Source: Thermoplasmata archaeon
GTDB taxonomy: Archaea > Thermoplasmatota > Thermoplasmata > Lutacidiplasmatales > SKW197
DNA length: 64,000 bases
NCBI GenBank assembly: GCA_038874435.1
Contig: JAVZCK010000006.1
Coordinates: 37,332-101,331 of the forward strand
Reading direction: 5' to 3'
Position numbers and translations under genes: made by a program. The notes beneath the pieces are model-generated. The model saw only the letters and a program-made list of their open reading frames with translations, searched no databases and had not been told where the DNA came from. Numbering within the stretch: position 1 is the stretch's first letter; each line of letters opens with the position of its first letter. Positions 29,790-46,509 of this stretch are shown here, piece by piece.

Positions 29790-29834
29790 TCATAATCCTC
29801 AAAAATCTTGGTGTAAATAATACTTTTTAAAGGT

Positions 29835-31697
29835 TTACTTCTCATCTACCTTCTTGTATTCCGCATCCACATATTCTTTCTTTCCTTCTTCCTTCTTTTC
29901 CCCTTGGGAATTCTCTGCGTTAGTAGAAGAGGATTGTGCGGTTTGCTGGTAGAGCCGTGTGCTCACAGCACCCACTGTGTTCAGCAGTTCCTCCATTCCT
30001 TTCTTCATAGCATCCACATCTTCCTTTTCCACCGCCTTGTTCAAATTATCAATTGCGTCCTCTATCTTTTTCTTCTCATCCTCGGTTATTTTGTCCTTGA
30101 ACTCATTGAGCATTTTTCTGGTATTGTAAATCAGTCCTTCTGCTTTATTCTTTGTCTCCACCTTTTCCACTACCTTCTTATCCTCTGCCGCATATTTCTC
30201 TGCCTCTTTCACCATTGCATCTATCTGTTCTTTGCTGAGTTTTGTGGAAGCGGTTATTGTGATGCTCTGGGATTTGCCAGTAGCCCTGTCCTTCGCAGAA
30301 ACATGGAGTATGCCATTGGCATCAATGTCAAAAGTCACTTCTATCTGGGGCACGCCTCTGGGTGCAGGTGGAATCCCTGAGAGCAAAAATTTTCCGAGGG
30401 AGGTGTTGTCCTTAGCCAACGGCCTCTCGCCCTGAAGCACATGAATCTCCACAGTGCTTTGGAAGTCAGATGCTGTTGTGAATACCTCTGTTTTCCTTGT
30501 AGGAATTGTGGTATTTCTCTCAATAATTTTCGTGAACACACCGCCAAGCGTTTCTACACCAAGAGAAAGTGGTGTGACATCCAGGAGCAGAATGTCCTTT
30601 ACTTCTCCAGCCAGCACTGCTCCCTGGATTGCTGCACCTATCGCAACGCATTCCATCGGGTCAACACCCCGTTCAATTTTTTTGCCTAAAATTCGTTCAA
30701 CAAAGTTCTGGACTGCGGGCATTCTTGTTGGCCCACCTACAAGAATAACCCTATCAATGTCCTCCTTTGTGAGTTTCGCATCCTTCAACGCCTGGTTAAT
30801 CGGGGTTTCACACCTCTTAAGAATTGGCTCAATTAATTCCTCAAGCTTCGCTCTCGTGAGTTTCATCTGAAGATGTTTGGGTCCTGTACTGTCCGCAGTA
30901 ATGAACGGAAGATTTATCTCTGTTTCCAGCACAGAGGAAAGCTCAATCTTTGCCTTCTCCGCTGCCTCTTTTAATCGCATCATTGCCATTCTGTCATTTC
31001 GTAGGTCTATTCCTGTTTCCTCCTTGAACTTACCAGCAACGTAGTCAATTATTGCATTGTCCATGTCTGTGCCACCAAGTTGGGTATCCCCAGATGTTGA
31101 GAGAACCTCGAAAACACCTTCGCCAAATTCCATAATTGTAACATCAAGTGTTCCTCCACCTAAATCAAACACTAGAATTTTCTGTTCCTTGCCTGCCTTA
31201 TCTATACCATAAGCAAGCGATGCAGCGGTGGGCTCGTTTATTATTCGCACTACCTCCAGTCCCGCAATTGTCCCAGCATCCTTTGTTGCCTGTCTCTGAT
31301 TATCGTTGAAGTATGCTGGTACAGTGATTACTGCTTTATCCACTTTCTCGCCTAGAAATGCCTCCGCATCCTTCTTTATCTTCTGGAGAATGAAGGCAGA
31401 GAGTTGCTGGGGCGTGAATTCCTTTCCATAAATGTTGTACTTGTAGTCGGTACCCATTTTTCGCTTCACAGCATAAACCGTGCCTTCAGGATTTGTAATT
31501 GCCTGCCTCCTTGCTGGTTCTCCCACGAGCAACTGTCCATCCTTTGTGAATGCTACATAAGAGGGAAATGCCTTGCCTCCGATTGTAGTGCCTTCAGCAC
31601 TTGGGATTATAACTGGCTTTCCTCCTTCAATTACTGCTGCTGCAGAATTACTTGTGCCCAGGTCAATCCCTATAATTTTGCCCATATGCATCACCAA
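29835..31697 (-). CDS. dnaK: molecular chaperone DnaK (Hsp70)
   Basis: '[15 protein letters not shown]', '[16 protein letters not shown]', '[13 protein letters not shown]', EEVD-less C-terminal acidic tail. The true start is probably the '[10 protein letters not shown]' Met at 31685. Confidence 0.95.
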
Positions 31698-31714
31698 AAT
31701 TGGTATAAATGCAC

Positions 31715-31780
31715 TACTATATAAAACTTTCTAAATGGACACTGGCATACCAGCCAACACCCTCAAAACATTTATATAAT
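31715..31780. promoter_or_regulatory. divergent promoter region with TATA-like boxes for dnaK (minus) and the 31804 gene (plus)
   Basis: 'ggtataaatg' and 'actatataaaac' read as TTTTATATAG on the minus strand, about 40 nt upstream of dnaK. 'catttatataatc' lies about 25-30 nt upstream of the 31804 ATG, a likely leaderless transcript. Confidence 0.3.
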
Positions 31781-31803
31781 CTCTCACAAATATAGATGTC
31801 AGC

Positions 31804-34110
31804 ATGGCGAATATGGTTGTCTGCCCGAAATGTGGTTCCATCAACTCCCCGAAAGCTATGGAGTGCACAGAATGTGGTTCTCCGCTAGTTCCAGATAAGC
31901 TCCGATTCTTACTGGATGTGCAAGGTATGAACCCATCATTAATTCAAAAACTCTACCTTGCCGGTTTTAAAAATGCCGACGACCTCAAGAATGCTAGTGT
32001 AAAAGAAATCGCCAAAGTTGAAGGTATCACAAGAAATATGGCTGAGAGAATCAAACAGCAAATAATCAAACTTGAACTTACTGGGAACCAGAAGAGTGTT
32101 TCTCTCTACATTTGCTCTCACTGTGGTGCGCTTCTCTCAGAAAAAGCCACATCCTGCCCACAATGTGGTGCTGCAGTGGTCCAAGAACCAGAGACAGAAG
32201 TTCAGCTTGAAACGAAAACTTCCCCAGAAGAAGAGAAACTGATAAAAGAACTGGAAAAGCCAAAAATTACCCTTTTTCTCTGCTCAAACTGTGGGGCTTT
32301 TGTATCCAGTGATGCAAGAGCATGTCCAAACTGTGGTGCTCTAATGGAAAGTGCTGCTGAGGAAGAAATTGAAACCAAGGAAGGCACATCAGAAGTCAAA
32401 ACAACCCCTGAAATTACACCAATGCACGAGATGGATGGTGCGATCATAGGTGTGTGCAGTTCCTGCGGTGCATTTCTGTCAAGAAGTGCAAAGGCATGTC
32501 CAGTATGTGGAAGCCCAGCTGAAAACAACATTAGTGTGGCAATAAATTCCATTGGTGAAGTGGAAACAAGAGGTAAAGAAACACCAATCAAGCCAGATTT
32601 TGCAATATCCAGCTTCGATCCGAAGCTTGAATCAGAGGGCAAAATTTTTTTGTGTGAGGTCTGTGGTGCGTTTGTTTCAGAAGGTGCCGAAGTGTGTCCT
32701 GTGTGCAACTCCCCAACCACAAATATGAAGAAGGAGGTAATCAGAATAGGCACACCTGAGAAAATGAGCAGTGAGGAGCTCATAAATCTTTTAGAAAAAG
32801 AAATAACTAAGGCGATAGATGATGCAGAGAAATCAATAGCCGAAGAGAAGAAAATTGAGATGCAACAGATGCCTGTTGAACCAGAAGTTGTCGAACTCCA
32901 TGGCTTTGAGTCCATTGAAGCGGAATTGAAGGAGGCAATTCCTGAGCATCAGACGGAGCCGGAATCTGAAGAGGCGCAGGAACATGTGGAACATCTAGAG
33001 GATGTGCATTCTGCAGTCACCTATGAAATTGGAGACATTCTTGTAGAAAGTGTGCTGAAGAATAAATTCTCTTTTGAAGAGACGGAAAATGTAGAAAAAA
33101 TAGAGCATGTTTCAGACCCTGTTGGAGAGGTCGAAAGCGAACTCTGGGAGTATTTTTTTGACGCCGAGGAGGAAAAAACAGAAGTGGAAGGAACTGAATG
33201 TCCTATATGTGGTTACAAAAATCCAGCCAATGAGGAAAAGTGCGAGATTTGTGGCTCAACCATTATGCCAGAAGAGGAAGAGAAACGGGAGGAAGAAATC
33301 ACTGAACCACCTAAAAAAGTGAAAAAGGAAGTAGTGATCGAAGAAAAAAAGGCACAGCCAGATAAAGCAGCCAAAGAAGTTGAAAAGGTGAAAAAGGAAG
33401 TGATGACTGTGCCTGTTGGCAAAGTAAAGGTGAAGCCCATCCCAGTTGGAAAGAAAGTTTCTCGAGTATCTCCTCTTGAAAAGCATTATTATAAAATACT
33501 TGGAATTTCTCTTGCAGGTACTGGGATTGTATGTTTGCTTGTTTTTGGTGTATCAACTCTATCTGCGGGTGTTATGGCTCTCGTCTTTATTGTTATAGGG
33601 GCGATTTTCTCGTTGTTGATGCTGAAGCATCAGAAGAAGGAAGAACCTACAGTTCAAAAATTTCTCAAGGTTCCTCAACCCTCGAAACCCAGTGAAGTTG
33701 CTTTGTTCAATATGGGGTCAACATATCTTACTACAGGGAGATTCAATGATGCAGTGAAGGCCTTTGAAGAGGTTGTGAAATTGAATCCAAGAAATGAGGT
33801 TGCATGGAATAATCTGGGCAGCGCGCTTTCAAAACTGGAGAAACATGAGGATGCACTGAAATGCTACGAAAAGGCACTAGAACTTAAACCAGATTTTGAG
33901 ATTGCATGGAATAACAGAGGGAATGCCCTTGCACGACTTGGAAGATTTGAGGAAGCACTTGAATGCTATGATAAAGCGATTGCACTAAAAAGAGATTATC
34001 ATGATGCCTGGGTGAACAAGGGCTATGTGCTAGTTAAAATTGGGCGATACAGCGAGGCAATCGCCTGTGCAAATGAGGCAAACAAGCTCGTGGAGAGAAC
34101 CTATGGCTGA
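31804..34110 (+). CDS. multi-zinc-ribbon protein (six CxxC...CxxC ribbons), helix-hairpin-helix, acidic linker, TM segment, C-terminal TPR repeats
   Basis: The six ribbons are 'CPKCGS..CTECGS', 'CSHCGA..CPQCGA', 'CSNCGA..CPNCGA', 'CSSCGA..CPVCGS', 'CEVCGA..CPVCNS' and 'CPICGY..CEICGS'. HhH 'VKEIAKVEGITRNMAERI'. TM 'ISLAGTGIVCLLVFGVSTLSAGVMALVFIVIGAIF'. TPRs 'AVKAFEEVVKLNPRNEVAWNNLGSAL...ALKCYEKALELKPDFEIAWNNRGNAL...'. Confidence 0.65.
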   Translation: MANMVVCPKCGSINSPKAMECTECGSPLVPDKLRFLLDVQGMNPSLIQKLYLAGFKNADDLKNASVKEIAKVEGITRNMAERIKQQIIKLELTGNQKSVSLYICSHCGALLSEKATSCPQCGAAVVQEPETEVQLETKTSPEEEKLIKELEKPKITLFLCSNCGAFVSSDARACPNCGALMESAAEEEIETKEGTSEVKTTPEITPMHEMDGAIIGVCSSCGAFLSRSAKACPVCGSPAENNISVAINSIGEVETRGKETPIKPDFAISSFDPKLESEGKIFLCEVCGAFVSEGAEVCPVCNSPTTNMKKEVIRIGTPEKMSSEELINLLEKEITKAIDDAEKSIAEEKKIEMQQMPVEPEVVELHGFESIEAELKEAIPEHQTEPESEEAQEHVEHLEDVHSAVTYEIGDILVESVLKNKFSFEETENVEKIEHVSDPVGEVESELWEYFFDAEEEKTEVEGTECPICGYKNPANEEKCEICGSTIMPEEEEKREEEITEPPKKVKKEVVIEEKKAQPDKAAKEVEKVKKEVMTVPVGKVKVKPIPVGKKVSRVSPLEKHYYKILGISLAGTGIVCLLVFGVSTLSAGVMALVFIVIGAIFSLLMLKHQKKEEPTVQKFLKVPQPSKPSEVALFNMGSTYLTTGRFNDAVKAFEEVVKLNPRNEVAWNNLGSALSKLEKHEDALKCYEKALELKPDFEIAWNNRGNALARLGRFEEALECYDKAIALKRDYHDAWVNKGYVLVKIGRYSEAIACANEANKLVERTYG

Positions 34111-34498
34111 GAAAATAACAGAACCAGAGAGAGAGGCCTTGCTTTACGAAATTAGGCGCTCATTTGCGATTCTGAATGCTGATATACCTGAAAAAGTTGA
34201 ACTTAAGGGTTTTAAGGAAGTTCCACTAAGAGAGATAGTTCTGGAAATTCGGAAAGGAGGAGTAAAGAATAGAGATTACATTATCTCACTAATTGAGGCA
34301 ATCAACCAGAAGGTCAAGGAGATGGAGGAAAAAATTTACGGAGAAATTACAATTGAGGAGGCAATCTGTCTTAAAGATTCAATACTCGGTTTAAAAAGAG
34401 CAAGAGCAGAGCTTGAGAGTGAGCTGGATGGCAATTCCAATATGGAACTTGAAGACACGAAAAGGTTTTACAACCTTGTAAAGGAGCTGAGAAGATGA
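34103..34498 (+). CDS. hypothetical cytoplasmic protein (131 aa), translationally coupled (ATGGCTGA overlap) to upstream gene
   Basis: The ORF is in frame from 34040, but the ATG at 34103 overlaps the upstream TGA stop (ATGgcTGA). Charged helical protein, no motif. Confidence 0.45.
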   Translation: MAEKITEPEREALLYEIRRSFAILNADIPEKVELKGFKEVPLREIVLEIRKGGVKNRDYIISLIEAINQKVKEMEEKIYGEITIEEAICLKDSILGLKRARAELESELDGNSNMELEDTKRFYNLVKELRR

Positions 34499-34989
34499 GA
34501 TACACAGCTAGACACGCACTGATTGTAGGAACCTGGTTTGCTATTTTGGTTTATGCTTTGCTCATTTTCCAGCTTTCCTCTGCTCCCATGAATGCACAAC
34601 CTCAACCAATCCAAACCACTTACCAGACAATAAACGAGACCGTGAGCCAAACCATTGTTGTGCCCACAGGACAGCCCCAGAGATATACACCGGACTATCT
34701 TCATCTCTTTCTGTTTGTCGGTTTCGGTTGTTTGCTTTATGCTGGCTTTTTTGTGCTCGGAGGTAGGGCGAGACATTTTGCAGTCAATTTAGCATGGATT
34801 GCTGGCACTATCTATGGAATTGCGGATGAATACCACCAGAGTTTTGTCCCAGGCAGAACAATGGACTGGAAGGATGCTGTTGCTGATGCCAGCGGTGTAT
34901 TTCTTGGAATCCTGATCGCTGTGCCTCTCGTTCTTGCAGTAATTAAACTCAGGATAAGGTTCCGCTCAAAGTGGCTGGATTATGCTTAA
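34495..34989 (+). CDS. VanZ-like family membrane protein
   Basis: 'AGTIYGIADEYHQSFVPGRTMDWKDAVADASGVFLGI' matches the VanZ-like conserved (D/E)E.HQ.F.PGR...D...D..G core. Four TM helices. ATGA overlap with the upstream gene. Confidence 0.65.
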   Translation: MRYTARHALIVGTWFAILVYALLIFQLSSAPMNAQPQPIQTTYQTINETVSQTIVVPTGQPQRYTPDYLHLFLFVGFGCLLYAGFFVLGGRARHFAVNLAWIAGTIYGIADEYHQSFVPGRTMDWKDAVADASGVFLGILIAVPLVLAVIKLRIRFRSKWLDYA

Positions 34990-35201
34990 CAACACAAAAC
35001 GAAAACTGTAGTGTTCTCCCATATAAACCTATATAAACCTAATGTGTGATTTCACAATTTGACGCTGTTTTTTATGATTATTTGAAATTACTGGCATAAT
35101 TTTTCACAAACAATCCAGAATGTGCCAGATTTTATGCTTCAAACTGTGAAAACTTGCGATATATATATATATGATTTGTTTTCTTATTATTGGTGAGAAA
35201 A

Positions 35202-36260
35202 ATGGGCACAAAATGGAGAGTATTCGGGATAGGAATAGTGCTTTTCGCACTATTCTGGTGCTCTGTGGCTCAGATGCCTACAGTGAACGCAGGGAATGAT
35301 GACACACAGAAGGAAGTTCTTGCAGAGTGGGTGAATCAGTATAATGGTAAGGCTGGGGACCTTCCCTACTCTGACATTGATGCATACGGAAGAACTGGCT
35401 GGTGGTGGTACTGGCCGATATTAGGATATGTGTATGGAACCAAACCAGGATTCGGGTATGTAATGTCCCAGCATGGATGGGAGACAACAGTGTGGGGGAA
35501 CAACAATGCTATACCAGATGACTTCGCAAGACCAGCTGAATTTGGTGCATCTCGTGATTTTATCTATTTTGCAGGACATGGTACTGGCGGCGGAACGATA
35601 CGAGTAAATGGTCAATTTATCCACTTTAGCGCAATGGTATTCGGTACAGATCAATCTTCTGCGATATCTATGCCTCCAAACAGCTACGACCCATTAACTC
35701 AACCAGCATCAAATTATGCAGATTCGTATGAAACTTTGCTGGGTGATAATGACGATGTGGAATGGCTTACTCTTTCTTGCTGTCGGGGACTAGCAGGTGG
35801 AGCAAGTGCCGTATGCACCCAAACATGGGGATATGCAATGTACCACCATACACCAACAAACACGCAGGGCATTCATGTTGTCAACGGGTATGTAACAGAT
35901 TCTTATTGGTATGGGACTTGGTCATGGTGGGACCATAAAACTCGCGGGGCAATTTATGCAGAATGCCTTTTTGAAGGAGGAACCCAAAATGGATATCTGA
36001 AGCGTGCCGTGGGATTTGCATGGCAAAGAGCGACAATTCGGGATGTATCTGAGAATTGCTGGGGTGAGCATCACTATATTGTGGGTGCAAGTGTGGCAGC
36101 AGTGGGCAACATATACGAAAATGGAGAATTAGTAGATATAGTGGAATATTTCTATGAAGATACGATTGATTCCCCGCTTCCAGACCCGATAAACAAAAAT
36201 ATAGGAAATATTATATCAATATACACGCCACAGTATTATGAATGGGTTGTGGACCAGTAG
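35202..36260 (+). CDS. secreted protein (signal peptide), W/Y/G-rich, unknown function
   Basis: Signal 'MGTKWRVFGIGIVLFALFWCSVAQMPTVNAG'. The ORF track begins at a TTG (35190), so the ATG at 35202 is preferred. Preceded by an AT-run 'atatatatatat' (35161-35172). No catalytic motif recognised. Confidence 0.55.
   Translation: MGTKWRVFGIGIVLFALFWCSVAQMPTVNAGNDDTQKEVLAEWVNQYNGKAGDLPYSDIDAYGRTGWWWYWPILGYVYGTKPGFGYVMSQHGWETTVWGNNNAIPDDFARPAEFGASRDFIYFAGHGTGGGTIRVNGQFIHFSAMVFGTDQSSAISMPPNSYDPLTQPASNYADSYETLLGDNDDVEWLTLSCCRGLAGGASAVCTQTWGYAMYHHTPTNTQGIHVVNGYVTDSYWYGTWSWWDHKTRGAIYAECLFEGGTQNGYLKRAVGFAWQRATIRDVSENCWGEHHYIVGASVAAVGNIYENGELVDIVEYFYEDTIDSPLPDPINKNIGNIISIYTPQYYEWVVDQ
35229..35275 (+). repeat. 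47-bp direct repeat copy A (inside the signal-peptide coding region of the 35202 gene)
   Basis: ataggaatagtgcttttcgcactattctggtgctctgtggctcagat. It is 45/47 identical to the copy at 38575-38621. Confidence 0.8.
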
Positions 36261-36272
36261 GAGGCGAATACC

Positions 36273-37262
36273 ATGAAAAAAGTGACTAAGATAATAATTT
36301 CTCTGGCGGTATGCGGAATGCTTTGCGGAGTTCTGGTTTGGTATTTAACAGCACCTGCTCCAAGAACAGAAGAAAACGAGAATGTGGCTTCATCCGTTCT
36401 CATTGGAACACAGAGTACCTATGCCCCCTATCTTTACAATGGAGATGTAGATTTCGACAAAAATCTTTCAGGTGTTCTCGATAGCTGGCCAAGCAAAAGA
36501 GCCCTCCTTACATTGACAATTTTCTCACCACTCCAAGGTGCGAACAAACAGGATGCTTGTATTGCCATTGCGAAAGCATTTGGAATTTACACAAACACAA
36601 CTGAGGAGAGTCCGCTTGGAATCACAGTTAAAGATGAATCTAGACAAGTTGAAGTTAGCACAGTTTCAATTTTGTATTCCACAGACTACGCTGTTCCGCC
36701 AACATTGCCAGAAAAATTTATCTCTGACGATAAAGCGGTAAGCACAGCATGGAATTTTATAAATTCCACAGTTCCACATATCTTGAAGAATGCATACCCA
36801 CATCTAACAATAGACTTCCATGCGATTGATGCCGATAAGAAAAGTGATGGTGTCGTTACTTACTACACCACGAAAGTTATATCCTTCTCACTTGCATACG
36901 ATGACTATCCAATTGCGCCAAGAGTGATGGTACGAGTGAACGCTACAGGAACAGTTACCTGGTTATCCATGTCCTGTGATTTTGCAGTTTCAAATTATGG
37001 CTGGATTGATGCAAAACAACCAGCCGAAATTATAAACTATCTCAGAGGTAAAGGTATTGGTATCTCCAAACCTCCTCAAAATGTAAAAAAAGCAAGTATT
37101 ACAGGAATTGATATCTACTATGTGACGTCAGAGAAACCTCTGCTTCCAGATAAACCGCACCCACCATTACTTGTACCACTTTACGAAATGAAGATAACTG
37201 TTATGTACAATGACGGCACCACTGAAAACATCCAACAAAACCTCAGGGTGGAATTGGCATGA
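36273..37262 (+). CDS. secreted/membrane-anchored protein, unknown function
   Basis: N-terminal signal anchor 'VTKIIISLAVCGMLCGVLVWYL'. 13-nt gap after the upstream gene with RBS 'ggaggcg'. ATGA overlap with the downstream gene. Confidence 0.5.
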   Translation: MKKVTKIIISLAVCGMLCGVLVWYLTAPAPRTEENENVASSVLIGTQSTYAPYLYNGDVDFDKNLSGVLDSWPSKRALLTLTIFSPLQGANKQDACIAIAKAFGIYTNTTEESPLGITVKDESRQVEVSTVSILYSTDYAVPPTLPEKFISDDKAVSTAWNFINSTVPHILKNAYPHLTIDFHAIDADKKSDGVVTYYTTKVISFSLAYDDYPIAPRVMVRVNATGTVTWLSMSCDFAVSNYGWIDAKQPAEIINYLRGKGIGISKPPQNVKKASITGIDIYYVTSEKPLLPDKPHPPLLVPLYEMKITVMYNDGTTENIQQNLRVELA

Positions 37263-38578
37263 GAAAACTATTCCTATTTTTATTTATTTTCTTTCTTGCG
37301 ACTATTTCATTTGTTCACATCAACGCCCTTGCAGAATCAGCGCCTTCGGACAGATACTTAGAACATGCCCCTATTAAGATTACCTCAAAAAGTGAATTCA
37401 CAAAAGAGAATGGCGTGGTTGGGGGCTGCGGGACTGCAAATGACCCCTTTATCATTGAAGGTTGGAAAATTGTGAATGCTATAGAATGGAGTGGCATTTA
37501 TGTAAGATGCAGCACAGAGGTTTTTTATATCATAAGAAATTGTTTTGTTGTCGGATGTCATATTACACTGTATGCCGATAACGGTCTTATCATGGACAAC
37601 ATAATATATAATCCCGATTATAATGCCAGTGGTTACGGAATATACATCGGAGCAAGAAACATAGTCATCTATAACAATACAATTACCGCATACTACGCAG
37701 GAGTTGAGGTCACTAAGGGATGGGATTTAAGAACAGATTCTCAAAATATCCAGGTTATCTCAAATAATATTACCTCCCTTAACGGTGTTGACCTTCAACA
37801 TGTATCCAATGCGAGAGTTGAGTCAAATCACATAACGGGATTTTGTGGGGTGATGGATGGTGAAAGCGAAAATGGCAAAATAATCTCAAACAACTTTTAC
37901 ATAGTTCAAGGATGTGCAATAAATGGAAGAAACGAAATTCATCATAACAACTTTCACAAGCGATTTGAAAATGGAGTTTTAAACAAAAGTCTGGGTGAAG
38001 ATAGGTCTGGGAGAAGCATCTGGTATGACCCAGAAAGAAAAGAAGGAAATTACTGGTATAACTGGGATGGTAAAGGCTGGGGCACAGAAAATGCATATCC
38101 GATTAACGGTTCAAACGTATCCGATTACTACCCTCTGAGGACACCACTAGAAAATCAAACAATCTTTATAAAATACAACAAGACGATTTCTATGTCTGAG
38201 AAAATTAAGGTATATGTAAAGAATGCTAGCTCAGAACCGCTTAGGGGTTGTGGTCTCTCTGTGGAATTCGTTTTTGACGCACCTGCTGGAGTTAGAGCAT
38301 ATGTTGAAAACGCTCAATCTGATGAAAATGGGAGTGCAGAGGTGGATGTGGAGGTCAATCCCAACGCAAATTCTGGGAAACATCTTGTGATTCTAATGAT
38401 AAAATCTAATAAATCTGGCTATTTGAATTCTTCAAAGATTGTGATTCTCACAGTTTGCATAAACACAGGTTCTCCTTTGGAGTTAAATCCGTTGGTTATT
38501 ACTACTCTTCTTATTATACTATTAGCTTGTTTCATTGGGTATGTCTTCCACATGAGAAAAAAGAGGAGGGGAAAATAG
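37259..38578 (+). CDS. secreted right-handed parallel beta-helix repeat protein with C-terminal TM anchor and basic tail
   Basis: Signal 'MRKLFLFLFIFFLATISFVHINALA'. PbH1-like repeats ('IYNNTITAYYAGVEV', 'ISNNITSLNGVDL', 'VESNHITGFCG', 'ISNNFYIVQGCAI'). C-terminal 'SPLELNPLVITTLLIILLACFIGYVFHMRKKRRGK'. Confidence 0.6.
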   Translation: MRKLFLFLFIFFLATISFVHINALAESAPSDRYLEHAPIKITSKSEFTKENGVVGGCGTANDPFIIEGWKIVNAIEWSGIYVRCSTEVFYIIRNCFVVGCHITLYADNGLIMDNIIYNPDYNASGYGIYIGARNIVIYNNTITAYYAGVEVTKGWDLRTDSQNIQVISNNITSLNGVDLQHVSNARVESNHITGFCGVMDGESENGKIISNNFYIVQGCAINGRNEIHHNNFHKRFENGVLNKSLGEDRSGRSIWYDPERKEGNYWYNWDGKGWGTENAYPINGSNVSDYYPLRTPLENQTIFIKYNKTISMSEKIKVYVKNASSEPLRGCGLSVEFVFDAPAGVRAYVENAQSDENGSAEVDVEVNPNANSGKHLVILMIKSNKSGYLNSSKIVILTVCINTGSPLELNPLVITTLLIILLACFIGYVFHMRKKRRGK

Positions 38579-38621
38579 GAATAGTGCTTTTCGCACTATT
38601 CTGGCACTCTGTGGCTCAGAT
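38575..38621 (+). repeat. 47-bp direct repeat copy B (begins at the stop codon of the 37259-38578 gene, non-coding context)
   Basis: ataggaatagtgcttttcgcactattctggcactctgtggctcagat. Flanking sequence diverges immediately on both sides. Confidence 0.8.
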
Positions 38622-38662
38622 ATGAACGGTGATGCAAATGCAGACAGTGGTATGCCTCATTT

Positions 38663-39073
38663 CTATTTCACCAGTGCAAACTTATACCCATAGTAGATTA
38701 TTCCTGCCTTTCCATCCTCGCCAAGCCGCCTGAACACCATCTCCACCTTTGAGCCAATCTTAACCTCCTCTGGATTGCAATCCACAATCTGGGCTGTGAT
38801 TTTTGGGCCCTCATCCAGCTGAATTATTGCCATGATGTAAGGCACCTGGTTCTCAAATCCATCTGCTGGCTCGTACACCAATGTATAGGAATGCACAACA
38901 CCCTTACCACTCAACTTGTATTGTTTCATCTTTCCTATGCTCAATCGATGGCAATCTGGACACACAATCCTCGGCGGAAAATACACCTTCTTGCAATTCT
39001 CGCACTGCACACCAATCAGGTTATAGCGGTTTGGAATCTGACGCCAGAATCTCGGTATCTGCATTTTGACCAC
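38663..39073 (-). CDS. DUF35 OB-fold/zinc-ribbon protein (scaffold subunit of archaeal thiolase-HMG-CoA synthase complex)
   Basis: Rubredoxin-like 'CENCKKVYFPPRIVCPDCH' plus an OB-fold C-terminus. It sits immediately downstream of the thiolase and HMGCS genes on the same strand. Confidence 0.8.
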   Translation of the reverse strand: MVKMQIPRFWRQIPNRYNLIGVQCENCKKVYFPPRIVCPDCHRLSIGKMKQYKLSGKGVVHSYTLVYEPADGFENQVPYIMAIIQLDEGPKITAQIVDCNPEEVKIGSKVEMVFRRLGEDGKAGIIYYGYKFALVK

Positions 39074-39074
39074 C

Positions 39075-40244
39075 TCAATTCTCCCGCTTGAGAATGCTCA
39101 CAAAGGCAGTTGCACCAGTACCTCCAATGTTCAGTGTCAAGCCCACATTTGCATTTGGCACCTGCCTTTCCTTCGCCTCGCCTCTCAGCTGTTGCACAAT
39201 CTCAACCACCTGCGCAATTCCCACAGCACCTGGCGGCTGACCTCTGCCCTTGAGTCCACCAGAGGGATTCACCACCACTTTACCTCCAATGTCTGTCTGG
39301 CCCTCTGCAGTTGCCTTGCCTCCTTCACCCTTTTTCACTAGTCGCAAGTCCTCTATCTCCACAATCTCTGCAATAGTATAACAGTCGTGTACCTCTGCTA
39401 TATTCACCTCTCGCGGACCAATCTTCGCCATGTGGTATGCCCTGCTGGATGCCCTCACAACCGCATCCATGGTGCAGATGTCCCTTCTGCTATGCAATGC
39501 AATTGTATCTGTGGCAAGACCTACACCTGCAATCTTGACTGGAGTATCACAGAATTTTTTAGCATGGTCCCATGGACAGAGTACCACCGCTGCCGCACCA
39601 TCTGAAACCGGGGCACAGTCAAGGGTCTTTATCGGTGTAGCTACTGGTGAAGAAGAAAGTACTTGCCCAACCGTCAGTGTGTTCTTGAAATGCGCAACTG
39701 GGTTCTTGGAAGCAAATTTGTGATTTTTCACAGCCACATGAGCCATCTGTTCTTCGGTAGTTCCATATTCATACATGTGTCGCCTTGCCATCATTGCAAA
39801 CAGCGAGGCATAGGTAGCCCCAAAAATGCTTTCCCACTCGTTGTCTGCAGTGGAACAAAGTTCTCTGTTGGCTTCCGCATCTCCTACATCCGTCATCTTT
39901 TCTGCACCACCAACCATCACGAAATCATACATGCCAGAGGCAACTGCAAGGTATGCTTCATAGAGAGCAACACCTCCAGATGCACTTGCTGCTTCCACAC
40001 GCACAGCTGGTAGATGCTTGGAAGAATAGCCAGAATAGTCAAGAATCAATGAGGAAACATGCTCCTGTTCAATAAGTTTGCCAGCAGACATATTTCCAAC
40101 ATAGAGAGCGTCAAGCAAATCACCACTTATCTTTGCATCTTCAATCGCTCTGAGCCCTGCCTCAATTCCAATCTCTCTAAAGGATTTTTCCCAGAGTTCC
40201 CCGAACTTTGTCATTCCAATTCCAATTATTGCTACATCTCGCAT
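39075..40244 (-). CDS. acetyl-CoA C-acetyltransferase (archaeal thiolase, mevalonate pathway)
   Basis: Thiolase fold: 'VAIIGIGMTKFG', active-site Cys region 'EAASASGGVAL', C-terminal 'GLKGRGQPPGAVGIAQVVEI...NIGGTGATA'. 1 nt after the HMGCS stop. Confidence 0.85.
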   Translation of the reverse strand: MRDVAIIGIGMTKFGELWEKSFREIGIEAGLRAIEDAKISGDLLDALYVGNMSAGKLIEQEHVSSLILDYSGYSSKHLPAVRVEAASASGGVALYEAYLAVASGMYDFVMVGGAEKMTDVGDAEANRELCSTADNEWESIFGATYASLFAMMARRHMYEYGTTEEQMAHVAVKNHKFASKNPVAHFKNTLTVGQVLSSSPVATPIKTLDCAPVSDGAAAVVLCPWDHAKKFCDTPVKIAGVGLATDTIALHSRRDICTMDAVVRASSRAYHMAKIGPREVNIAEVHDCYTIAEIVEIEDLRLVKKGEGGKATAEGQTDIGGKVVVNPSGGLKGRGQPPGAVGIAQVVEIVQQLRGEAKERQVPNANVGLTLNIGGTGATAFVSILKREN

Positions 40245-40248
40245 TTGA

Positions 40249-41298
40249 TCATTCCTCCCTTAGAATAATCTGGTGCTTTAGTTTCGTGTAGATTGCATAG
40301 TTTACCTCAACTGCATTCTCAATGTAGTGCCTGATTAGGGGTGCGTTTTCTCGCTTGAAATTCTGGATTTCCTCAGTCACAGTTATATCAAAACCGTCTG
40401 AGCCAGCACCTGAACCAAAGGCAACAGCGAGAATTCTGTCCCCTGGCTTTGCAACATCAAGCACAGAACATAGACCAAGCATTACTGCTCCTGAATACGT
40501 GTTGCCGATGTAGGGTGTAAGCAAGCCCTGGTTTATCTGTTCGTCCTTGAAACCAAGCATTTTGCCTGCCCTTCTTGGAAATCTGCCATTGGGCTGATGG
40601 AAAATTGCATACTGGTAATCCTCTGGTTTCGTGCCCTGCATCTCCATCAATTTTTTGGCACAGGTGAGCACATGTCTGAAGTATGCTGGCTCTCCTGTAA
40701 ATCTGCCACCATGACTGGGATACATCTGTCCCTCTCTTCTCCAGAAGTCAGGTGTGTCTGTTGTAAAAGAGTATGTGCGATTGATTTCCGCAATCACCTT
40801 CTCATTGCCGATGAGGATTGCAGCACCACCAGCACTTGCAGTATATTCTAGTGGGTCTCCAGGTGCTCCCTGAGATGTGTCAGCACCTATTGCAAGTCCA
40901 TACTTTATCATCCCTGATTTCACAAGGCCCATGCAGGTCTGGATGCCTGCAGTCCCTGCCTTGCAGGCAAATTCGTAGTCAGCAGCAGTTAAGTCAGGCG
41001 TTGCACCTATTGCCTCTGCAACAACGGTGGCAGTGGGCTTCACAGCATAGGGATGCGACTCTGAGCCACAATAGATTGCTCCAATTTCTTTCGGATTAAT
41101 TGAAACTCTTTTCAGTGCGTTCCTTGCCGCTGTCACCGCAATTGTGATTGTGTCTTCATCCGGGCCTGGCACTGATTTGGCTTTCACACCTAAGCTCTCG
41201 CCGTAGCTCTTTCCATCGATTCCCCACACCGCTCCAATCTCTGCAGGTGTTATCCTGTAGCGGGGCACATAGCCACCATAACTTACTATTCCTACCAT
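40249..41298 (-). CDS. hydroxymethylglutaryl-CoA synthase (archaeal type)
   Basis: '[16 protein letters not shown]', catalytic Cys '[12 protein letters not shown]', 'HQPNGRFP'. 349 aa. Forms the canonical archaeal HMGCS-thiolase-DUF35 operon. Confidence 0.85.
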
Positions 41299-41302
41299 TT
41301 TT

Positions 41303-41998
41303 TCACAACTCCTCTAATCTTTTTATTATTTCATTCAGGTTCATTTTTGTGACAAGCAAGGGAATGTTTTCCAGTTCTGCAATTTTTATTGCAAGTGGGT
41401 CAAGTTCCTTTGGTGCATGGAGCACCACACAGGCAGGTTTCAGGGGATGGACCCTTATTGCTACCATGGGACTTCGGCCAAACCTTACATCGGTAAATAT
41501 GAGGGCCCTCTCAGTGCTCCAGCCATAAATTTTGAGATAGTCAGTAGCATTCAGGGAGAGAATTGCCTTAACACTATCAACTATTGTGTAGCCATGTATG
41601 TCACGCTGGAGTGAGCAAGGAGAAACATTTTTTGCACCAAGCACATCCTTGAAGTCGGTTAGTGGAATTCCAATGGGAAACTCACGAATCTGAATAATGG
41701 CATCACTTTCAACACCAAGCATGTATTTTTTAATGACTTCCCCACCTTTTTTTCTATCAATATTTATTATAGACTGGACAATTCTAGAAATTGTCTTTAT
41801 GCCTGGCGACTCCCTTCGCTCATGTTCGTAGTCGCAGATTGTGGATGGCGAGACACCCAGTTCTTCAGCAAGTTCTTTCTGACTCACTTTGAAGGTTTCC
41901 CGCCATTTCTTTATTGTCTTGCCAGGGCTTTCAGAAAGCACGATTTCGCCAGCCATTTTTTCAGCAAGTTTATCAAGCATTCGGGGTTTCAATGGCAT
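41303..41998 (-). CDS. XRE-family helix-turn-helix transcriptional regulator with uncharacterised C-terminal domain
   Basis: HTH_3 '[40 protein letters not shown]'. About 150-aa C-terminal domain. 4 nt after the HMGCS start (upstream, same strand). Confidence 0.6.
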
Positions 41999-42080
41999 CT
42001 AGTATATAAAACTTTTTCAAAGAATGCCGAATAGGTAGTTCGCTAAAGAGCGAACTAATATGGTAATTTCTATTTGCGTT

Positions 42081-42398
42081 CTATTTGCGAATTTCCTTTA
42101 TATCTTCCTGGATTTGTTTTTCCATTTCTCGGTCTATGCTTACCTCACTTTCCCAGATTTCAAGGTTTTCAATCAGTTCCTTAAGGGCTTTAAGGCAATT
42201 GATACATATGTATTTGTTTCCGATTTTCTTGACAGGGATTCTTTTATAACAGATGGTATCACAGAGAAAGCAAACATGCATCTCCTTTGTTTTGTATTCT
42301 GCATAACTCTCAAGCTTCTTCCCTTCGATTATTGCTTCTATCCACTTCTCTCTTTTTGCAGTTTCTTCAATCGTGCCTTTTTCTTTTTCATCAGGCAT
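42081..42398 (-). CDS. small zinc-finger protein, hypothetical
   Basis: 'CFLCDTICYKRIPVKKIGNKYICINCL' has two CxxC pairs, flanked by charged helices. 105 aa. Confidence 0.35.
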   Translation of the reverse strand: MPDEKEKGTIEETAKREKWIEAIIEGKKLESYAEYKTKEMHVCFLCDTICYKRIPVKKIGNKYICINCLKALKELIENLEIWESEVSIDREMEKQIQEDIKEIRK

Positions 42399-42461
42399 AA
42401 TCTCTTAACATGAATTTACGAAAGGTATTTAAATGTATTTGCTGTCTCCCTTCTGAGATAG

Positions 42462-43019
42462 ATGAAAGCTTTGGATTACAAAGACAGTGAGATAAAAACT
42501 AGAGGAGTGAATATAAAAAATCTCCTTGATACTATGAAATTTAAACGGGGAAGTGAGGGCCTCGCTGAGCTAAATAAACATCTATTAAATAACTATGGAC
42601 TTGACCTCTCCCATGTGATTGAAAAGGACTGGTACCCTCTGTGGTACGAATTTGCTGTGCTTGAAACCCTTTGCTCACAACTCCACGGTGACCCATACAA
42701 GAATGCAGAGGTAATAGGGGTGAGAGGTGCAGAAGACATTGGAATTCTTAAGTTTTTTGTAAAGTTTGTTATGAATCCAAACGAACTAGCTGCGAAATCA
42801 CAGAGTGATTGGAGAAATTTCTACGATGGTGGAAAATTTGTCATTCACAAGAATGTGCCAGGAGAGATAATCTGCGAAATTTGTGATTTTCCATACTTTG
42901 AACTTTACGCCCACAATATCAAAGGATTCTTGAAAGGAGTGCTCAAGCTGGGCGGTGCAAAAAACCCAAGGGTGGAAATTATAGAAAATTACAAATACAG
43001 ATGCACCTGGGAGCAGTAA
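42462..43019 (+). CDS. hypothetical protein (possibly V4R-like)
   Basis: 185 aa. 'CEICDFPYFELYAHNIKGFLKGVLKLGG' and C-terminal 'YRCTWE' are vaguely V4R-like. Weak. Confidence 0.3.
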   Translation: MKALDYKDSEIKTRGVNIKNLLDTMKFKRGSEGLAELNKHLLNNYGLDLSHVIEKDWYPLWYEFAVLETLCSQLHGDPYKNAEVIGVRGAEDIGILKFFVKFVMNPNELAAKSQSDWRNFYDGGKFVIHKNVPGEIICEICDFPYFELYAHNIKGFLKGVLKLGGAKNPRVEIIENYKYRCTWEQ

Positions 43020-43936
43020 AAGGCATGGATGGAAGAGACACCAATCAGAAGGAAGAATACATTTCCTAGAATTACACTTATAAATAAACCAGCGGTGATT
43101 GGAATTATGAATGGAATCTGTGGCGTCACCCAAACCTCTTTTCTGCCGAGCCGTTCAAGTTCTGCGACCTCTACAGCAATGTTTTCGTCCTCGTCCTTAT
43201 CTGGAGTGTATTTTGTAACAATTTTTCCGTTCACAGGATGTTCCATGAGCCAAACGAATTTTTTCTTTACATCACACACTGGCATTTTATAGCCAAAAAA
43301 TGCATGAGGAATCTTAGCGTTGCCCTTTACTGCATTGTAAAGGAAGAGCACTAGGGGATAAAAAATGAACCAGAACACTGCATTCAGAAGAACTGTAAGG
43401 GCAAAAGGAAACATAGTTTCAAACATGGAAATGTTTGTTTCTGCAAGCGGGAAATTGAGAAAACGAGGGTATGTGGGAAAAAGAAGAGCTATGAGCATGA
43501 GGGCTTTAGCATCTGCACCACCGTGAATTATGTTGAGCTCATAGAAAACTCGCATGAGCACCTGCATTGCAACAATGCCCATCAGAATTCCATTTTCAGG
43601 AGAAAACCAGTAAAAGCCAATCAAGAATGTGAGGGCTGTGAGCAGGATGTAAAGCGTCATTTCAACATAGATTTCCGTCGTTTCTGAAATGCCAAACCGT
43701 TCGAGGGAGATGTATGGTGTGAAGAAAAGAGCTATTGCAAGTAAACCAAGAAGATAAGCAATACCCGAGCTTGAGATTAAAATGAGATGGCTAAAAAGAA
43801 GTAGAGAACCAATTGCACCACCAATCAGCCAGACATAGTTTTCTATCTGACGTGTGCGATAGTCTGAGTAGGAAGCGATGCTAAACAAACCCAAAGCAAC
43901 AATCACACGGGTTATGTCAATGTATTCCAAGAGCAT
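42989..43936 (-). CDS. type IV prepilin/preflagellin peptidase (A24 family, PibD/FlaK/EppA-like) with C-terminal extension
   Basis: First catalytic Asp 'IASYSDYRTRQIEN'. Second Asp in 'IIHGGADAKALMLIALL' (GGxDxK signature). Polytopic membrane topology. Confidence 0.7.
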   Translation of the reverse strand: MLLEYIDITRVIVALGLFSIASYSDYRTRQIENYVWLIGGAIGSLLLFSHLILISSSGIAYLLGLLAIALFFTPYISLERFGISETTEIYVEMTLYILLTALTFLIGFYWFSPENGILMGIVAMQVLMRVFYELNIIHGGADAKALMLIALLFPTYPRFLNFPLAETNISMFETMFPFALTVLLNAVFWFIFYPLVLFLYNAVKGNAKIPHAFFGYKMPVCDVKKKFVWLMEHPVNGKIVTKYTPDKDEDENIAVEVAELERLGRKEVWVTPQIPFIIPITAGLFISVILGNVFFLLIGVSSIHAFYCSQVHLYL

Positions 43937-44025
43937 AATTCAGGTTAAAGAACAGTTATATATATGTGTAAGGGCGGTAATGTGTCAAAAGTGAAGCACA
44001 AATAAAAATAAAAAAACAGAGAAAA

Positions 44026-46509
44026 TTATTTTTGTCTTCTTCTATACAGTATTGAAAGCACACCTATGCAAAGTACCAACAACGCAAATACTGGGAATTG
44101 CGAGAACTCTGGAACACTCAAAGGATACCAGTCGCTCGCACCTGCACCACCAGCTATCGGATAAGCACTTGCCGTACCCCATTCCTTGCCGTCCCAGTTG
44201 CTCCAGTAGTTGCCTTCCTGTGCAGTATTATTGTACCAGAGGTTACCTGTACCTGCATCATATGCTTGACTTTTGCCATCTGTGGTACCTTTGGTTGCGC
44301 CGTTGTTCCCTGTAAAGTTATTATAACAGATGTAATTGTTTGCGGAAGTAGATGTGAGATAGATACCATAATTTGTGTTTTGGTATATCCTGTTATGTGT
44401 TATGTTATTAAAGGATGATGAGGTTATGTAGATTCCATAAGTGCCGTGGTTGTAGATATTGTTGTAGATTATTGTTGTATTGTTTGCATAGGATGATGTT
44501 GCAAAATAGATACCATATTGTGTATTGCTGTATATATCGTTGTTAATTATCGTGGTATTGTTCGCATATGATGATGCGAAATAGATGCCGTACTGTGCAT
44601 TGTTGTAGATTGTGTTGTTTGCAATAGTGTTGTTCTCTGGTTTTGTGCCCGTAAGATATATGCCTGCCCTACTGTTCCCAAAGGCCTCATTTCCGAGCAC
44701 TATGTTATTCCTCGAAGTGGTCAGTCTAATACCATCTCTGTTTCCATAAACAGTGTTATTTTTTACTGTGTTCCATACACTACTTGTTTGCAGCCATATT
44801 CCAAATGTGTGGTTATATACAATGTTCTCTTGAATTGTGACATTAGTGGCAGTGATGAGCGATATTCCAGCACTGTTTGTTCCACCTGATACATTCTCGA
44901 GTTCGCAGTTTTTGATGACTACATGGAGATTTGTATTCTGAAGAGAGATACCGTATGTGCCAGAGTAAGTAGATATCTTGTAGTTTTTGATTATGTATGG
45001 GTTCGATTCACTGCCGTCTCCATCCCAACCCCATTCAGCTGCCTTTCCAATCAGAGCGCTGTCTCCGTTTATTGCGAATGGCACTGTTCTCTTCATCGCT
45101 TCGTTTGGTGCAACACCACTGTTAATGTTCTCAATCCATGTGAAGTTCAAAATTTTAGGGCTATCACCTGTTGGGTTTTCCTTCGGAGACGCACCGAACA
45201 GGTAGTTGTTTGCACCATTTGTGATGTAGAAGAGAATGTTGACCTGCGTGGGATTTCCTATATCGGCAAATGGAATCGCTATCTCTGCGGTCTGGGAACC
45301 TTTTGCCACACCTCCTGTGAAACTCTGATCAGCAAGCCAAGCACCTGCATTTGAATCCCACATTCTTAGATTCCAATAAGGCGTTGCTCGACCTGGTGCA
45401 TAGACGAAACACCAGTCAGCATAGAAGGAGAAATTGTGCCAACCATTCCAGTCCACTGATGTGCTTCCACCACCACTGGCTGTGTCCATGTAAATCCAGA
45501 GCACATCCTCTTCAGTGCCTCCATGAAATGCCTCTCCTCTATCAACACCGATATAAAGATTATTTGCATTCCATGTGAGATACCAATTTACATTATCTTT
45601 ACCGCCCATGTTCTCGTCTGCTTGCCATTCTCCAAGGTCACCATCAACAACAATGTCATGGTAAGAGGTTTTACCATTTGAAGATAACTCAGTGTACTGG
45701 AGCGTTGTAGAAACGCTAAATTTCCAATCAACCATATAGTAATAAACTGCATAGGTCTCGCCTATACCAAGTGTGTTCTTCCCAGCCATTGTCTCCATTT
45801 CTCTGCCGTTCGTTGCTGCTGCCACACTATCGCCAATGTTCCATGTCCATTCCTGCTGCACCACACCTGCAAATGTCAGCACTCGGCTTGCCTCTATCTT
45901 TCCGTTCTTGCCTACAATTTCTATGGCCTTGTCAGCTCCAACTGCAAAGTTTTGCGAGGGCTTGAAACCAGTTGCTGCGTTATTGTCCGTGTCAATAAAT
46001 ACATACGCCACATCCCTTCCATTTGCGTTTGGAATTGCAGTTTCTCGCTGATTCGCAACATACACCGGATTTTCCGATGGTGCCTCCACAATGTATCTGC
46101 CATCACCAGCAAGCAAATTACCATACACCTTTGCATAAAACGCCACACTCTTGCCAGATTCCGCTGTTGCATATTCAGCAATGTCTATGTTTTCTGGCAC
46201 ACCGAAATTCCTTGCCTTCGAGGTCTTTTCAATGCCCTGCCAGTCCTCAAAATTACCATCTACCTTTATTACACTAGCATTGTTATTCTGCCATGTAAGC
46301 ACCGCAATTGCACTGAGCACTACTATACCTATCAGAAACACAGCCAAGATACGTGCATGATTAACACCTTTGTTCATTCTCTTATTGTATTTGTGTTTGT
46401 GCGTTAAACCACTTGTAAACCCACTGGGATACCCATATTTGTTATTCCTAATGCCCTTCAACTCCAAACCTTTTGTGGTTTTGCTTTCCAACTTCATTTG
46501 AATCACCAA
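44026..46509 (-). CDS. secreted parallel beta-helix repeat protein with PEF-CTERM-like sorting signal
   Basis: Basic N-terminus plus signal anchor. Long tandem PbH1 repeats ('NNTIANNTIYNNAQYGIYFAS', 'INNDIYSNTQYGIYFATSS', 'IYNNIYNHGTYGIYITSSS'). C-terminal 'SVPEFSQFPVFALLVLCIGVLSILYRRRQK' (PEF + TM + basic). Confidence 0.7.
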   Translation of the reverse strand: MVIQMKLESKTTKGLELKGIRNNKYGYPSGFTSGLTHKHKYNKRMNKGVNHARILAVFLIGIVVLSAIAVLTWQNNNASVIKVDGNFEDWQGIEKTSKARNFGVPENIDIAEYATAESGKSVAFYAKVYGNLLAGDGRYIVEAPSENPVYVANQRETAIPNANGRDVAYVFIDTDNNAATGFKPSQNFAVGADKAIEIVGKNGKIEASRVLTFAGVVQQEWTWNIGDSVAAATNGREMETMAGKNTLGIGETYAVYYYMVDWKFSVSTTLQYTELSSNGKTSYHDIVVDGDLGEWQADENMGGKDNVNWYLTWNANNLYIGVDRGEAFHGGTEEDVLWIYMDTASGGGSTSVDWNGWHNFSFYADWCFVYAPGRATPYWNLRMWDSNAGAWLADQSFTGGVAKGSQTAEIAIPFADIGNPTQVNILFYITNGANNYLFGASPKENPTGDSPKILNFTWIENINSGVAPNEAMKRTVPFAINGDSALIGKAAEWGWDGDGSESNPYIIKNYKISTYSGTYGISLQNTNLHVVIKNCELENVSGGTNSAGISLITATNVTIQENIVYNHTFGIWLQTSSVWNTVKNNTVYGNRDGIRLTTSRNNIVLGNEAFGNSRAGIYLTGTKPENNTIANNTIYNNAQYGIYFASSYANNTTIINNDIYSNTQYGIYFATSSYANNTTIIYNNIYNHGTYGIYITSSSFNNITHNRIYQNTNYGIYLTSTSANNYICYNNFTGNNGATKGTTDGKSQAYDAGTGNLWYNNTAQEGNYWSNWDGKEWGTASAYPIAGGAGASDWYPLSVPEFSQFPVFALLVLCIGVLSILYRRRQK

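Follow-up and report, generated by a model that had tools for sequence, protein, structure and literature searches.

A solo signal-peptide fragment behind a three-gene secreted-protein cassette of a Thermoplasmata archaeon, a probable relic of a gene family led by a shared promoter-plus-signal-peptide module

Two near-identical 47-bp direct repeats, R1 and R2, enclose three genes (g1, g2 and g3) in a stretch of 64,000 nucleotides from a Thermoplasmata archaeon (contig JAVZCK010000006.1 of assembly GCA_038874435.1). The whole stretch is called the window here, and positions are those of the window unless another contig is named. R1 is the middle portion of a larger module, M, which joins upstream DNA to the coding region of a signal peptide and heads several dispersed operons. 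R2 is best read as a non-functional, solo fragment of M, a relic of gene-family turnover, and the pair as a passive feature which does not move the 3.3-kb block lying in between; we give this reading a probability of about 0.6.

The repeat pair and the module shared by dispersed operons

The features on which the argument turns are the following.

35013..35291, plus strand: module M (about 280 nt): upstream DNA with an (AT)n tract, then a Shine-Dalgarno (SD) sequence and the whole signal-peptide coding region
35229..35275, plus strand: R1, copy 1 of the 47-mer, part of M, g1 codons 10-25
38575..38621, plus strand: R2, solo copy of the part of M which encodes the signal peptide, with weak similarity on to 38632
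35202..36260, plus strand: g1, secreted DUF6345 protein of 352 amino acids (Pfam PF19872)
36273..37262, plus strand: g2, protein of 329 amino acids with an N-terminal membrane/signal segment
37259..38578, plus strand: g3, beta-helix-like protein of 439 amino acids with a C-terminal transmembrane anchor and a basic tail

The 47-mer ATAGGAATAGTGCTTTTCGCACTATTCTGG(TG/CA)CTCTGTGGCTCAGAT is found at 35229-35275 and at 38575-38621. As an earlier note on this DNA had reported, the copies are identical at 45 of 47 positions; the two mismatches are adjacent (TG to CA at 38605-38606), and the exact core of the pair is 30 nt long. Without gaps, a weak similarity extends over 58 nt (88%). A match was obtained with none of 100 dinucleotide shuffles, and R1 and R2 are the sole high-identity dispersed repeat within the window. 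R1 encodes residues 10-25 of the g1 signal peptide (IGIVLFALFWCSVAQM; g1 is 35202-36260), again as the note had it. The second copy had been said to begin exactly at the g3 stop codon: the stop is indeed overlapped, TAG (38576-38578) lying inside the repeat, which starts one base upstream of it. R2 fills the first half of the 84-nt gap between g3 and a convergent DUF35 gene (38663-39064, minus strand), has no promoter, SD sequence or ATG and, translated in the frame of the repeat, has no start codon nearby and ends at once (...SVAQI*).

The sequence of R2 is identical in five metagenome-assembled genomes (MAGs; L010-L013, L015; L numbers denote the contigs and loci fetched for comparison) and in contigs from independent single-run assemblies of SRR27730023 and SRR27170999 (L014, L016, L033). 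In both raw-run assemblies R2 adjoins g3 and DUF35. Taken together, the five MAGs and the two independent assemblies rule out an assembly artefact as the source of the repeat. The window itself is 100% identical to contig JAVZRJ010000004.1 of MAG GCA_038880615.1 (Thermoplasmata archaeon). Exact-pattern scans for the core of the 47-mer found no match in GTDB species representatives, JGI metagenomes and IMG/VR, and a protein-pattern scan of genome_contigs, working on words of the signal peptide, yielded no confirmed hit.

A protein search returned three clusters only. The corresponding genes reside at locus A, which is the window (VanZ, M, g1-g2-g3), at locus B (L004, L005), where Pyr_redox and a gene for 162 amino acids precede B1-B2-B3-B4, and at locus C (L006-L009), where PolB and small genes precede C1-C2. 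Loci A and C co-occur in two MAGs, B and C in one, which also holds g2-g3 of locus A. Alignment of the paralogous N-termini, proposed in the earlier note as a check, gave a clear answer. The first 27 residues (MGTKWRVFGIGIVLFALFWCSVAQMPT) of the three proteins are 100% identical, the whole proteins otherwise 34-41%; mature domains of the A, B and C paralogues are 29-38% identical, as against 27/27 residues for the signal peptide. At the nucleotide level, M is 96-97% identical among the three loci in the 175 nt which precede the ATG; for the 81 signal-peptide-coding nt the figure is 95-98%, all differences within these codons being synonymous. Identity is at background both in the 300 coding nt beyond the signal peptide (37-50%) and in the DNA upstream of M (about 44%), and on the right M ends at the predicted point of signal-peptidase cleavage (VNA|G). 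It had been considered that the 47-mer might be a common signal-peptide-coding sequence of many unrelated genes. It is a signal-peptide-coding sequence shared by several genes, and these are paralogous, not unrelated.

An exhaustive HMMER search of 1.84 billion representatives found 10 relatives only, one of them an open reading frame of 42 amino acids (P0010) present in five assemblies, including a second contig of GCA_038880615.1. On that contig (JAVZRJ010000036.1, L024 3657-4934) lies a fourth copy of M, locus D, 84-93% identical to the others. Its SD sequence is weakened (GGTGAG to GTTGAG), and its signal peptide carries amino-acid changes. M is followed by the 42-codon stump P0010, which runs for about 15 codons past the signal peptide before it stops; a B3-like beta-helix gene comes immediately after, and there is neither a DUF6345 nor a g2-like gene. 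Locus D is an M-led DUF6345 gene from which nearly everything has been deleted.

Within M, the following elements were distinguished at locus A.

35021..35041, plus strand: left edge of M, 10-bp unit repeated in tandem (ATATAAACCT x2.1), found by TRF
35030..35056, plus strand: TATA-like box and perfect palindrome TGTGA-TT-TCACA
35159..35172, plus strand: (AT)7 tract, -43 to -30 from the ATG, candidate TATA box and length-polymorphic simple sequence repeat (SSR)
35192..35197, plus strand: predicted Shine-Dalgarno-like GGTGAG, 5 nt before the ATG

The ATATAAACCT duplication, which doubles the TATA-like box, is found at locus A only and is absent from M of loci B, C and D. In loci A, B and C, position -172 is occupied by the motif TATATAAA(C/A)CTAATGTGTGATTTCACA; a second lineage (L029, L030) has it at -78, and another species (L027) has a diverged version. 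The box and palindrome at 35030-35056, conserved in every copy of the module, may be a promoter/operator for some regulator. The signal peptide ends in ...LFALFWCSVAQMPTVNA|G and lacks a clear lipobox, its Cys falling outside the context [LVI][ASTVI][GAS]C; the VNA site, A-x-A-like, fits predicted cleavage by signal peptidase I.

Origin of R2 and competing readings

R2 comprises only codons 10 to about 29 of M. The promoter region, the (AT)n tract, the SD sequence, the ATG and the first nine codons are missing, and similarity fades 5-15 nt short of the right edge of M. Comparable relics exist in the same gene family, and R2 is read as a relic of its turnover for this reason: one is the stump of locus D, the other a 587-nt fragment (L029 13114-13700) which directly follows a beta-helix gene and is 97.8% identical to the 5' end of the g2-like gene of L030 (1309-1895). 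That the homology of R2 ends at the boundary of M agrees with an origin in another M-led gene, or with a fragment in which conversion has renewed the portion homologous to M. The left junction falls on the g3 stop codon, at an ATAG present in both partners, and is compatible with a microhomology-mediated deletion.

The archaeon carries a small family of secreted-protein operons, each encoding a DUF6345 protein, a g2-like protein and a membrane-anchored beta-helix protein and each headed by the same M. Most likely a neighbouring M-led gene, or a piece of one brought in by ectopic recombination, was deleted next to g3 and left R2 in place. The left junction of the deletion would have formed at the g3 stop through the ATAG microhomology, and the right end of the homology would be the natural boundary of M. 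R1 and R2 would then be a passive by-product of family turnover, and a rare homologous deletion between them would still be possible. The suggestion of the earlier note that the second copy is what remains of the 5' end of a deleted or recombined gene with a signal peptide is supported by the restriction of R2 to the signal-peptide part of M, by its end close to the boundary of M, and by the relics at locus D and in L029. Two further likenesses were tried and rejected: the 41 nt between R2 and the DUF35 stop as a remnant of the N/D/A-rich linker of a paralogue, similarity to any paralogue being not significant (p = 0.09-0.73), and homology between the purine-rich DNA before R2 and the DNA before R1, the likeness being compositional only.

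Several points weigh against reading R2 as a relic of a lost neighbour. An intact downstream paralogue is found at locus A in no relative, and the neighbour is one which we infer; the 41 nt 3' of R2 lack the significant paralogue similarity just mentioned. R2 is marginally nearest to R1 of its own locus (2 differences, as against 3 or more), and copying from R1 is also possible. All genomes with locus A belong to one species (99.7-100% identical), which makes the conservation of R2 uninformative on function. Finally, contig L003 (GCA_038883375.1) joins the flank of locus B to the cassette of locus A inside M. Its positions 1-1742 are 100% identical to the locus B flank (L004 8173-9914, with Pyr_redox and the gene for 162 amino acids) up to 78 nt into M; beyond this hybrid point the contig is the locus A cassette (window 35028 onward), the crossover lying within a 78-nt stretch identical in both modules. 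L003 is either a true ectopic recombinant or a short-read assembly chimera formed at the 78-nt exact repeat. If real, copies of M recombine ectopically and rearrange the contexts of the cassettes, which is nearer to the idea of exchange put forward in the earlier note.

M might also be a contingency module for expression. The (AT)n tract would be, or abut, the TATA box, slippage would alter the transcription of each operon independently, conversion would homogenise the copies, and ectopic exchange in M, as in L003, would reshuffle cassettes and leave debris of the R2 type. The only tract of at least five AT units in the window and in all fetched loci is the one in M, and its length varies. Locus A has 7 units in the window, in L002/L019 and in L018, and 8 in L003 (1796-1811); locus B has 6 (L004 9969-9980), locus C 13 in L006 (9946-9971) and 8.5 in L007-L009 (L007 7498-7514), locus D 5 (L024 3776-3785), and the other species 6 (L027 9960-9971). 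Over 8.44 kb, the window and L003 differ by a single AT unit and by nothing else. TATA-like boxes of other genes of the window lie at -28 to -45, and the arrangement at the HSP70 gene (TATA at -46 to -37, SD at -12) matches that of (AT)7 and its GGTGAG at -10. Placed where this genome puts its TATA boxes, (AT)n is possibly an archaeal promoter microsatellite. Alternatively, the element at 35030-35056 may be the true promoter/operator, with (AT)n in a long leader or 5' untranslated region (UTR). As a whole, the contingency scheme is unlikely.

Somewhat less credible is a derivation of R2 from locus A itself, by tandem duplication of the same cassette or by a short ectopic copy of R1, followed by deletion, with no other paralogue involved. 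The count of differences agrees with it (2 to R1, 3 to M-B, at least 4 to M-C and M-D), as does a locus-A-specific G in CAGAT shared by R2 and R1. Yet a self-copy should carry homology into the mature coding region of g1, to an arbitrary breakpoint, and the homology of R2 fades within 5-15 nt of the boundary of M; moreover, the ATA after CAG in R2 is shared with locus D and not with R1, and the single discriminating base could stem from later gene conversion.

How M has remained so uniform bears on the relic reading, in which conversion may have refreshed R2. A second lineage (P0006, P0008, P0012; loci L029 and L030) has a signal peptide of its own, with 25-26 of 27 residues identical between paralogues whose mature parts are 33-39% identical; the 5' modules of L029 and L030 share 89% identity over about 350 nt. 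Between lineages, signal peptides match at 10-11 of 27 positions and mature domains are 38-45% identical, pairing by paralogue type. The module of the other species (L027) shares 57-66% identity with M in the upstream part and 83-85% in the signal-peptide codons, below the identity between paralogues. M is hence more alike among paralogues within a lineage than between lineages, the reverse of the rest of the gene, as in concerted evolution. These patterns of identity are most likely due to recurrent gene conversion together with purifying selection on the peptide. The conversion is deduced from identity patterns with one mosaic variant seen, which weakens this account, and selection on regulatory DNA could contribute. 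The variant is the M-C copy of L009, which has the TG of the B type in a MAG which also holds locus B; it is a single case, for which mis-assembly of the MAG is possible.

Purifying selection might do without conversion altogether, acting on a shared region bound by a regulator and on a signal peptide adapted to a dedicated partner in export or processing. Such selection would agree with the synonymous nature of all A/B/C differences in the signal-peptide codons, with the conservation of the TATA-like box and palindrome across lineages, and with the substitutions gained by the decayed copy of locus D. An identity of 96-97% over 175 non-coding nt, however, far exceeds the needs of binding sites and the 57-66% of the other-species copy; the edges of M are sharp, signal peptides are lineage-specific in genes whose mature domains group by paralogue type, and L009 has its mosaic variant. 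Selection alone is thus a poor candidate, a little behind the self-copy in our estimate.

Both repeats contain a perfect palindrome with a 9-bp stem and a 5-nt loop, GAATAGTGC-ttttc-GCACTATTC.

35233..35255, no strand assigned: palindrome/hairpin in R1
38579..38601, no strand assigned: palindrome/hairpin in R2, terminator-like on the minus strand

R2 could therefore have been kept for a useful hairpin, serving as terminator or 3'-end stabiliser of the convergent mevalonate-pathway operon, of the g1-g3 transcript, or of both. The hairpin, of 9-10 bp, is stable: the 47-mer folds at -16.1 kcal/mol (z = -3.35), and the minus-strand intergenic RNA gives z = -3.66. The T-rich CTATTTTCCCCTCCTCTTTTTT comes after the R2 palindrome on the minus strand; the site is flagged as terminator-like and is the only match to the terminator-like consensus downstream of the HMG-CoA synthase/thiolase/DUF35 operon. 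Against this, the scan which flagged the site (38601-38579, minus strand) returned three sites where 2.8 are expected by chance, and the other cassettes have no palindrome at their 3' ends. The palindrome is broken by a synonymous ATA to ATT change in M-C and by a C to A change in strain L018; being disrupted in two copies with no compensation, it was rejected as a conserved RNA or DNA structure. Termination in Archaea uses oligo-T runs and does not require a hairpin, and archaeal terminators are not defined by a hairpin followed by a T run. Retention of R2 for its hairpin is accordingly very doubtful.

The repeats were also proposed to mediate excision, duplication or phase-variation-like exchange of the block. 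R1 and R2 would be working recombination sites, at which homologous or site-specific exchange excises, duplicates or swaps a promoterless g1-g2-g3 unit. Direct repeats with a 30-nt exact core do flank exactly three genes, and copies of M elsewhere could act as landing sites; L003 is an exact hybrid with its crossover in M, and vpma and vsp families of Mycoplasma recombine in conserved 5' regions (PMC2268961). A second contig, L015 (GCA_038872715.1), leaves the sequence of the window at 36196, in the 3' end of g1: its last 54 nt (L015 4187-4240) encode an in-frame hydrophobic segment (KGSFLIVSISVVLSISLE) fused to about 21 last residues of g1, and this segment has no match in the other fetched loci. 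L015 may be a deletion or replacement variant of g1.

The bulk of the data speaks against mobility. Every assembly covering locus A (about 6 strains of one species) has the arrangement R1-g1-g2-g3-R2, and no deletion, duplication or empty-site variant was found in about 10 assemblies. No recombinase, integrase or phage-like gene was found in or around the block (Pfam, PHROGs and NCBIfam for g1-g3; neighbouring genes), no tRNA in 28000-46000, and no 3' M-like copy in loci B, C and D, L027 and L028. Single-run contigs end at 35057, 35243, 38575 and 38603. Because of the 30-nt exact core and of the other copies of M, a de Bruijn graph with k=31 must branch at these very positions, and the contig ends were rejected as evidence of structural variants. 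M and its orphan fragment do break short-read assemblies and can yield chimeric MAG contigs. The crossover in L003 lies in the left 78 nt of M, outside the 47-mer, at an exact repeat prone to short-read mis-joining, and excision between R1 and R2 would leave a stump of 26 codons and a promoterless circle. The claim of mobilisation is not borne out, and a role of R1 and R2 as active sites is the least probable of the readings considered.

Genes of the cassette and its surroundings

Two genes flank locus A.

34495..34989, plus strand: VanZ-like gene, left flank (Pfam PF04892, E = 4.6e-14)
38663..39064, minus strand: DUF35 gene (ChsH2-type OB/zinc-ribbon), right flank (Pfam PF01796 and PF12172)

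The VanZ flank is present in 4-5 assemblies. DUF35 is the last gene of a convergent archaeal HMG-CoA synthase/thiolase/DUF35 operon, an assignment supported by synteny, and the genes around the block are VanZ, DUF5788, a TPR protein, DUF35, thiolase and HMG-CoA synthase.

DUF6345 members pass the gathering threshold of PF19872 (26.9 bits) with 38.1 (g1), 65.1 (B1), 65.6 (C1) and 210 (P0011) bits. The motifs GHG and S(A/C)C occur without exception in the paralogues, and a canonical member has a faint, sub-threshold match to Peptidase_C14 (E = 0.07). From these motifs and the weak match comes the idea that DUF6345 proteins may be caspase-like (clan CD) cysteine peptidases. An AlphaFold2 model of g1, from an alignment of three sequences, has a predicted local distance difference test (pLDDT) score of 30.6, and a sequence search of PDB gave no match for the DUF6345 profile or for g3.

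The protein of g2 has no Pfam match and is 26-30% identical to its paralogues B2 and C2. The fourth gene of locus B, B4 (167 amino acids, L004 13071-13574), resembles the N-terminal half of g2-like proteins alone (23-27% identity), and represents either a paralogue truncated long ago or a short family of its own. Beta_helix matches are found in B3 and D3, paralogues of g3. The C-terminus of g3, a transmembrane segment and a basic tail, is like that of B3, and g3 therefore looks complete and essentially intact. With the NosD/Beta_helix gene at 44098-44637, g3 shares 33% identity. At approximately 42989-46498 on the minus strand, a few kb away from the cassette, lie an Arc_PepC_II gene (archaeal prepilin/preflagellin-peptidase-like) and a gene for an 823-residue NosD/beta-helix protein, to which a part of g3 is 33% identical. 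PHROGs and NCBIfam gave no match for g1-g3, and Rfam (E <= 1) found nothing in 34900-38800. At the far left of the window (793-1733), three diverged direct repeats with a period of about 370 nt and 69-81% identity probably encode repeated domains of a large protein.

Comparison with known systems

Taken by itself, the 47-bp pair is ordinary, a relic of a gene family. Less ordinary is a promoter-plus-signal-peptide module homogenised over at least four dispersed operons of an uncultured Thermoplasmata archaeon known only from MAGs, together with the independent recurrence of this behaviour in a second lineage. Phase variation through simple sequences and conserved 5' expression modules belong to the textbook picture of bacterial pathogens, above all of mycoplasmas, and are, to our knowledge, essentially undocumented in Archaea. 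Thermoplasmata, like mycoplasmas, include wall-less cells. In Haemophilus influenzae, a (TA)n tract lies between the hifA and hifB promoters. If the contingency reading of M were true, it would amount to surface variation of the Vlp type in a free-living thermophilic archaeon, and to the first account in Archaea of phase variation through a promoter SSR. Should the tract influence transcription, it would offer a tractable archaeal example, and would point to bet-hedging on secreted or surface proteins in hot-spring archaea with no host immune system to face.

R2 falls into the ordinary class of gene relics, the solo 5' pieces which deletion leaves in multigene families, and differs from them in nothing essential; R2, the stump of locus D and the g2 fragment of L029 are all truncated 5' pieces. 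Integron cassettes and att-flanked islands likewise have short repeats around a block which looks promoterless, one of the repeats carrying a palindrome. They differ from the present case, which has no integrase, no attC-like element after the other cassettes and one repeat inside a coding signal peptide; the presence/absence polymorphism of such islands is not seen here among about 6 strains of one species.

As in segmental concerted evolution of other prokaryotes, M is a bounded tract closer between paralogues of one genome than between orthologues of different lineages, the remainder of the genes diverging. Gene conversion of this kind is known in archaeal paralogues, such as the duplicated mtrA of methanogens (PMC4632066), and has been surveyed in prokaryotic paralogues at large (PMC6053082). 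Unlike in cases of the mtrA type, the tract is made up of promoter, leader and signal peptide rather than of a catalytic core, includes non-coding DNA, and is spread over at least four dispersed loci.

The closest counterparts are the variable lipoprotein paralogues of mycoplasmas, which have conserved 5' UTR and signal-peptide regions (PMC2268961). In the vlp system of M. hyorhinis, as summarised in that source, slippage of a simple-sequence tract in the promoter switches transcription; in vpma of M. agalactiae and vsp of M. bovis, recombination in the conserved 5' region switches expression (PMC2268961). Archaeal phase-variable loci are, according to a 2025 review, still to be explored (PMC11868660). 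Loci A-D similarly join conserved upstream DNA and a signal peptide to divergent mature parts, and the candidate promoter region of M, like that of vlp, holds a simple-sequence tract whose length varies between strains. Differences are evident: promoters here are of the archaeal TATA/BRE (B recognition element) type, with (AT)n at a TATA-like position and not a poly(A) spacer separating -35 from -10; each unit is an operon of three genes, a clear lipobox is missing from the signal peptide, and no Xer-type recombinase is adjacent. ON/OFF switching is known for vlp and vpma, the archaeal module from sequence alone. The (TA)n tract of hif is akin to that of M in lying in a core promoter (a candidate one in M), in serving surface or secreted genes, and in differing in length between close strains; the tract of M differs in its archaeal promoter context and, again, in being known only through its sequence. 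The underlying feature, a homogenised promoter-plus-signal-peptide module with a polymorphic (AT)n tract, is a variation on these known systems.

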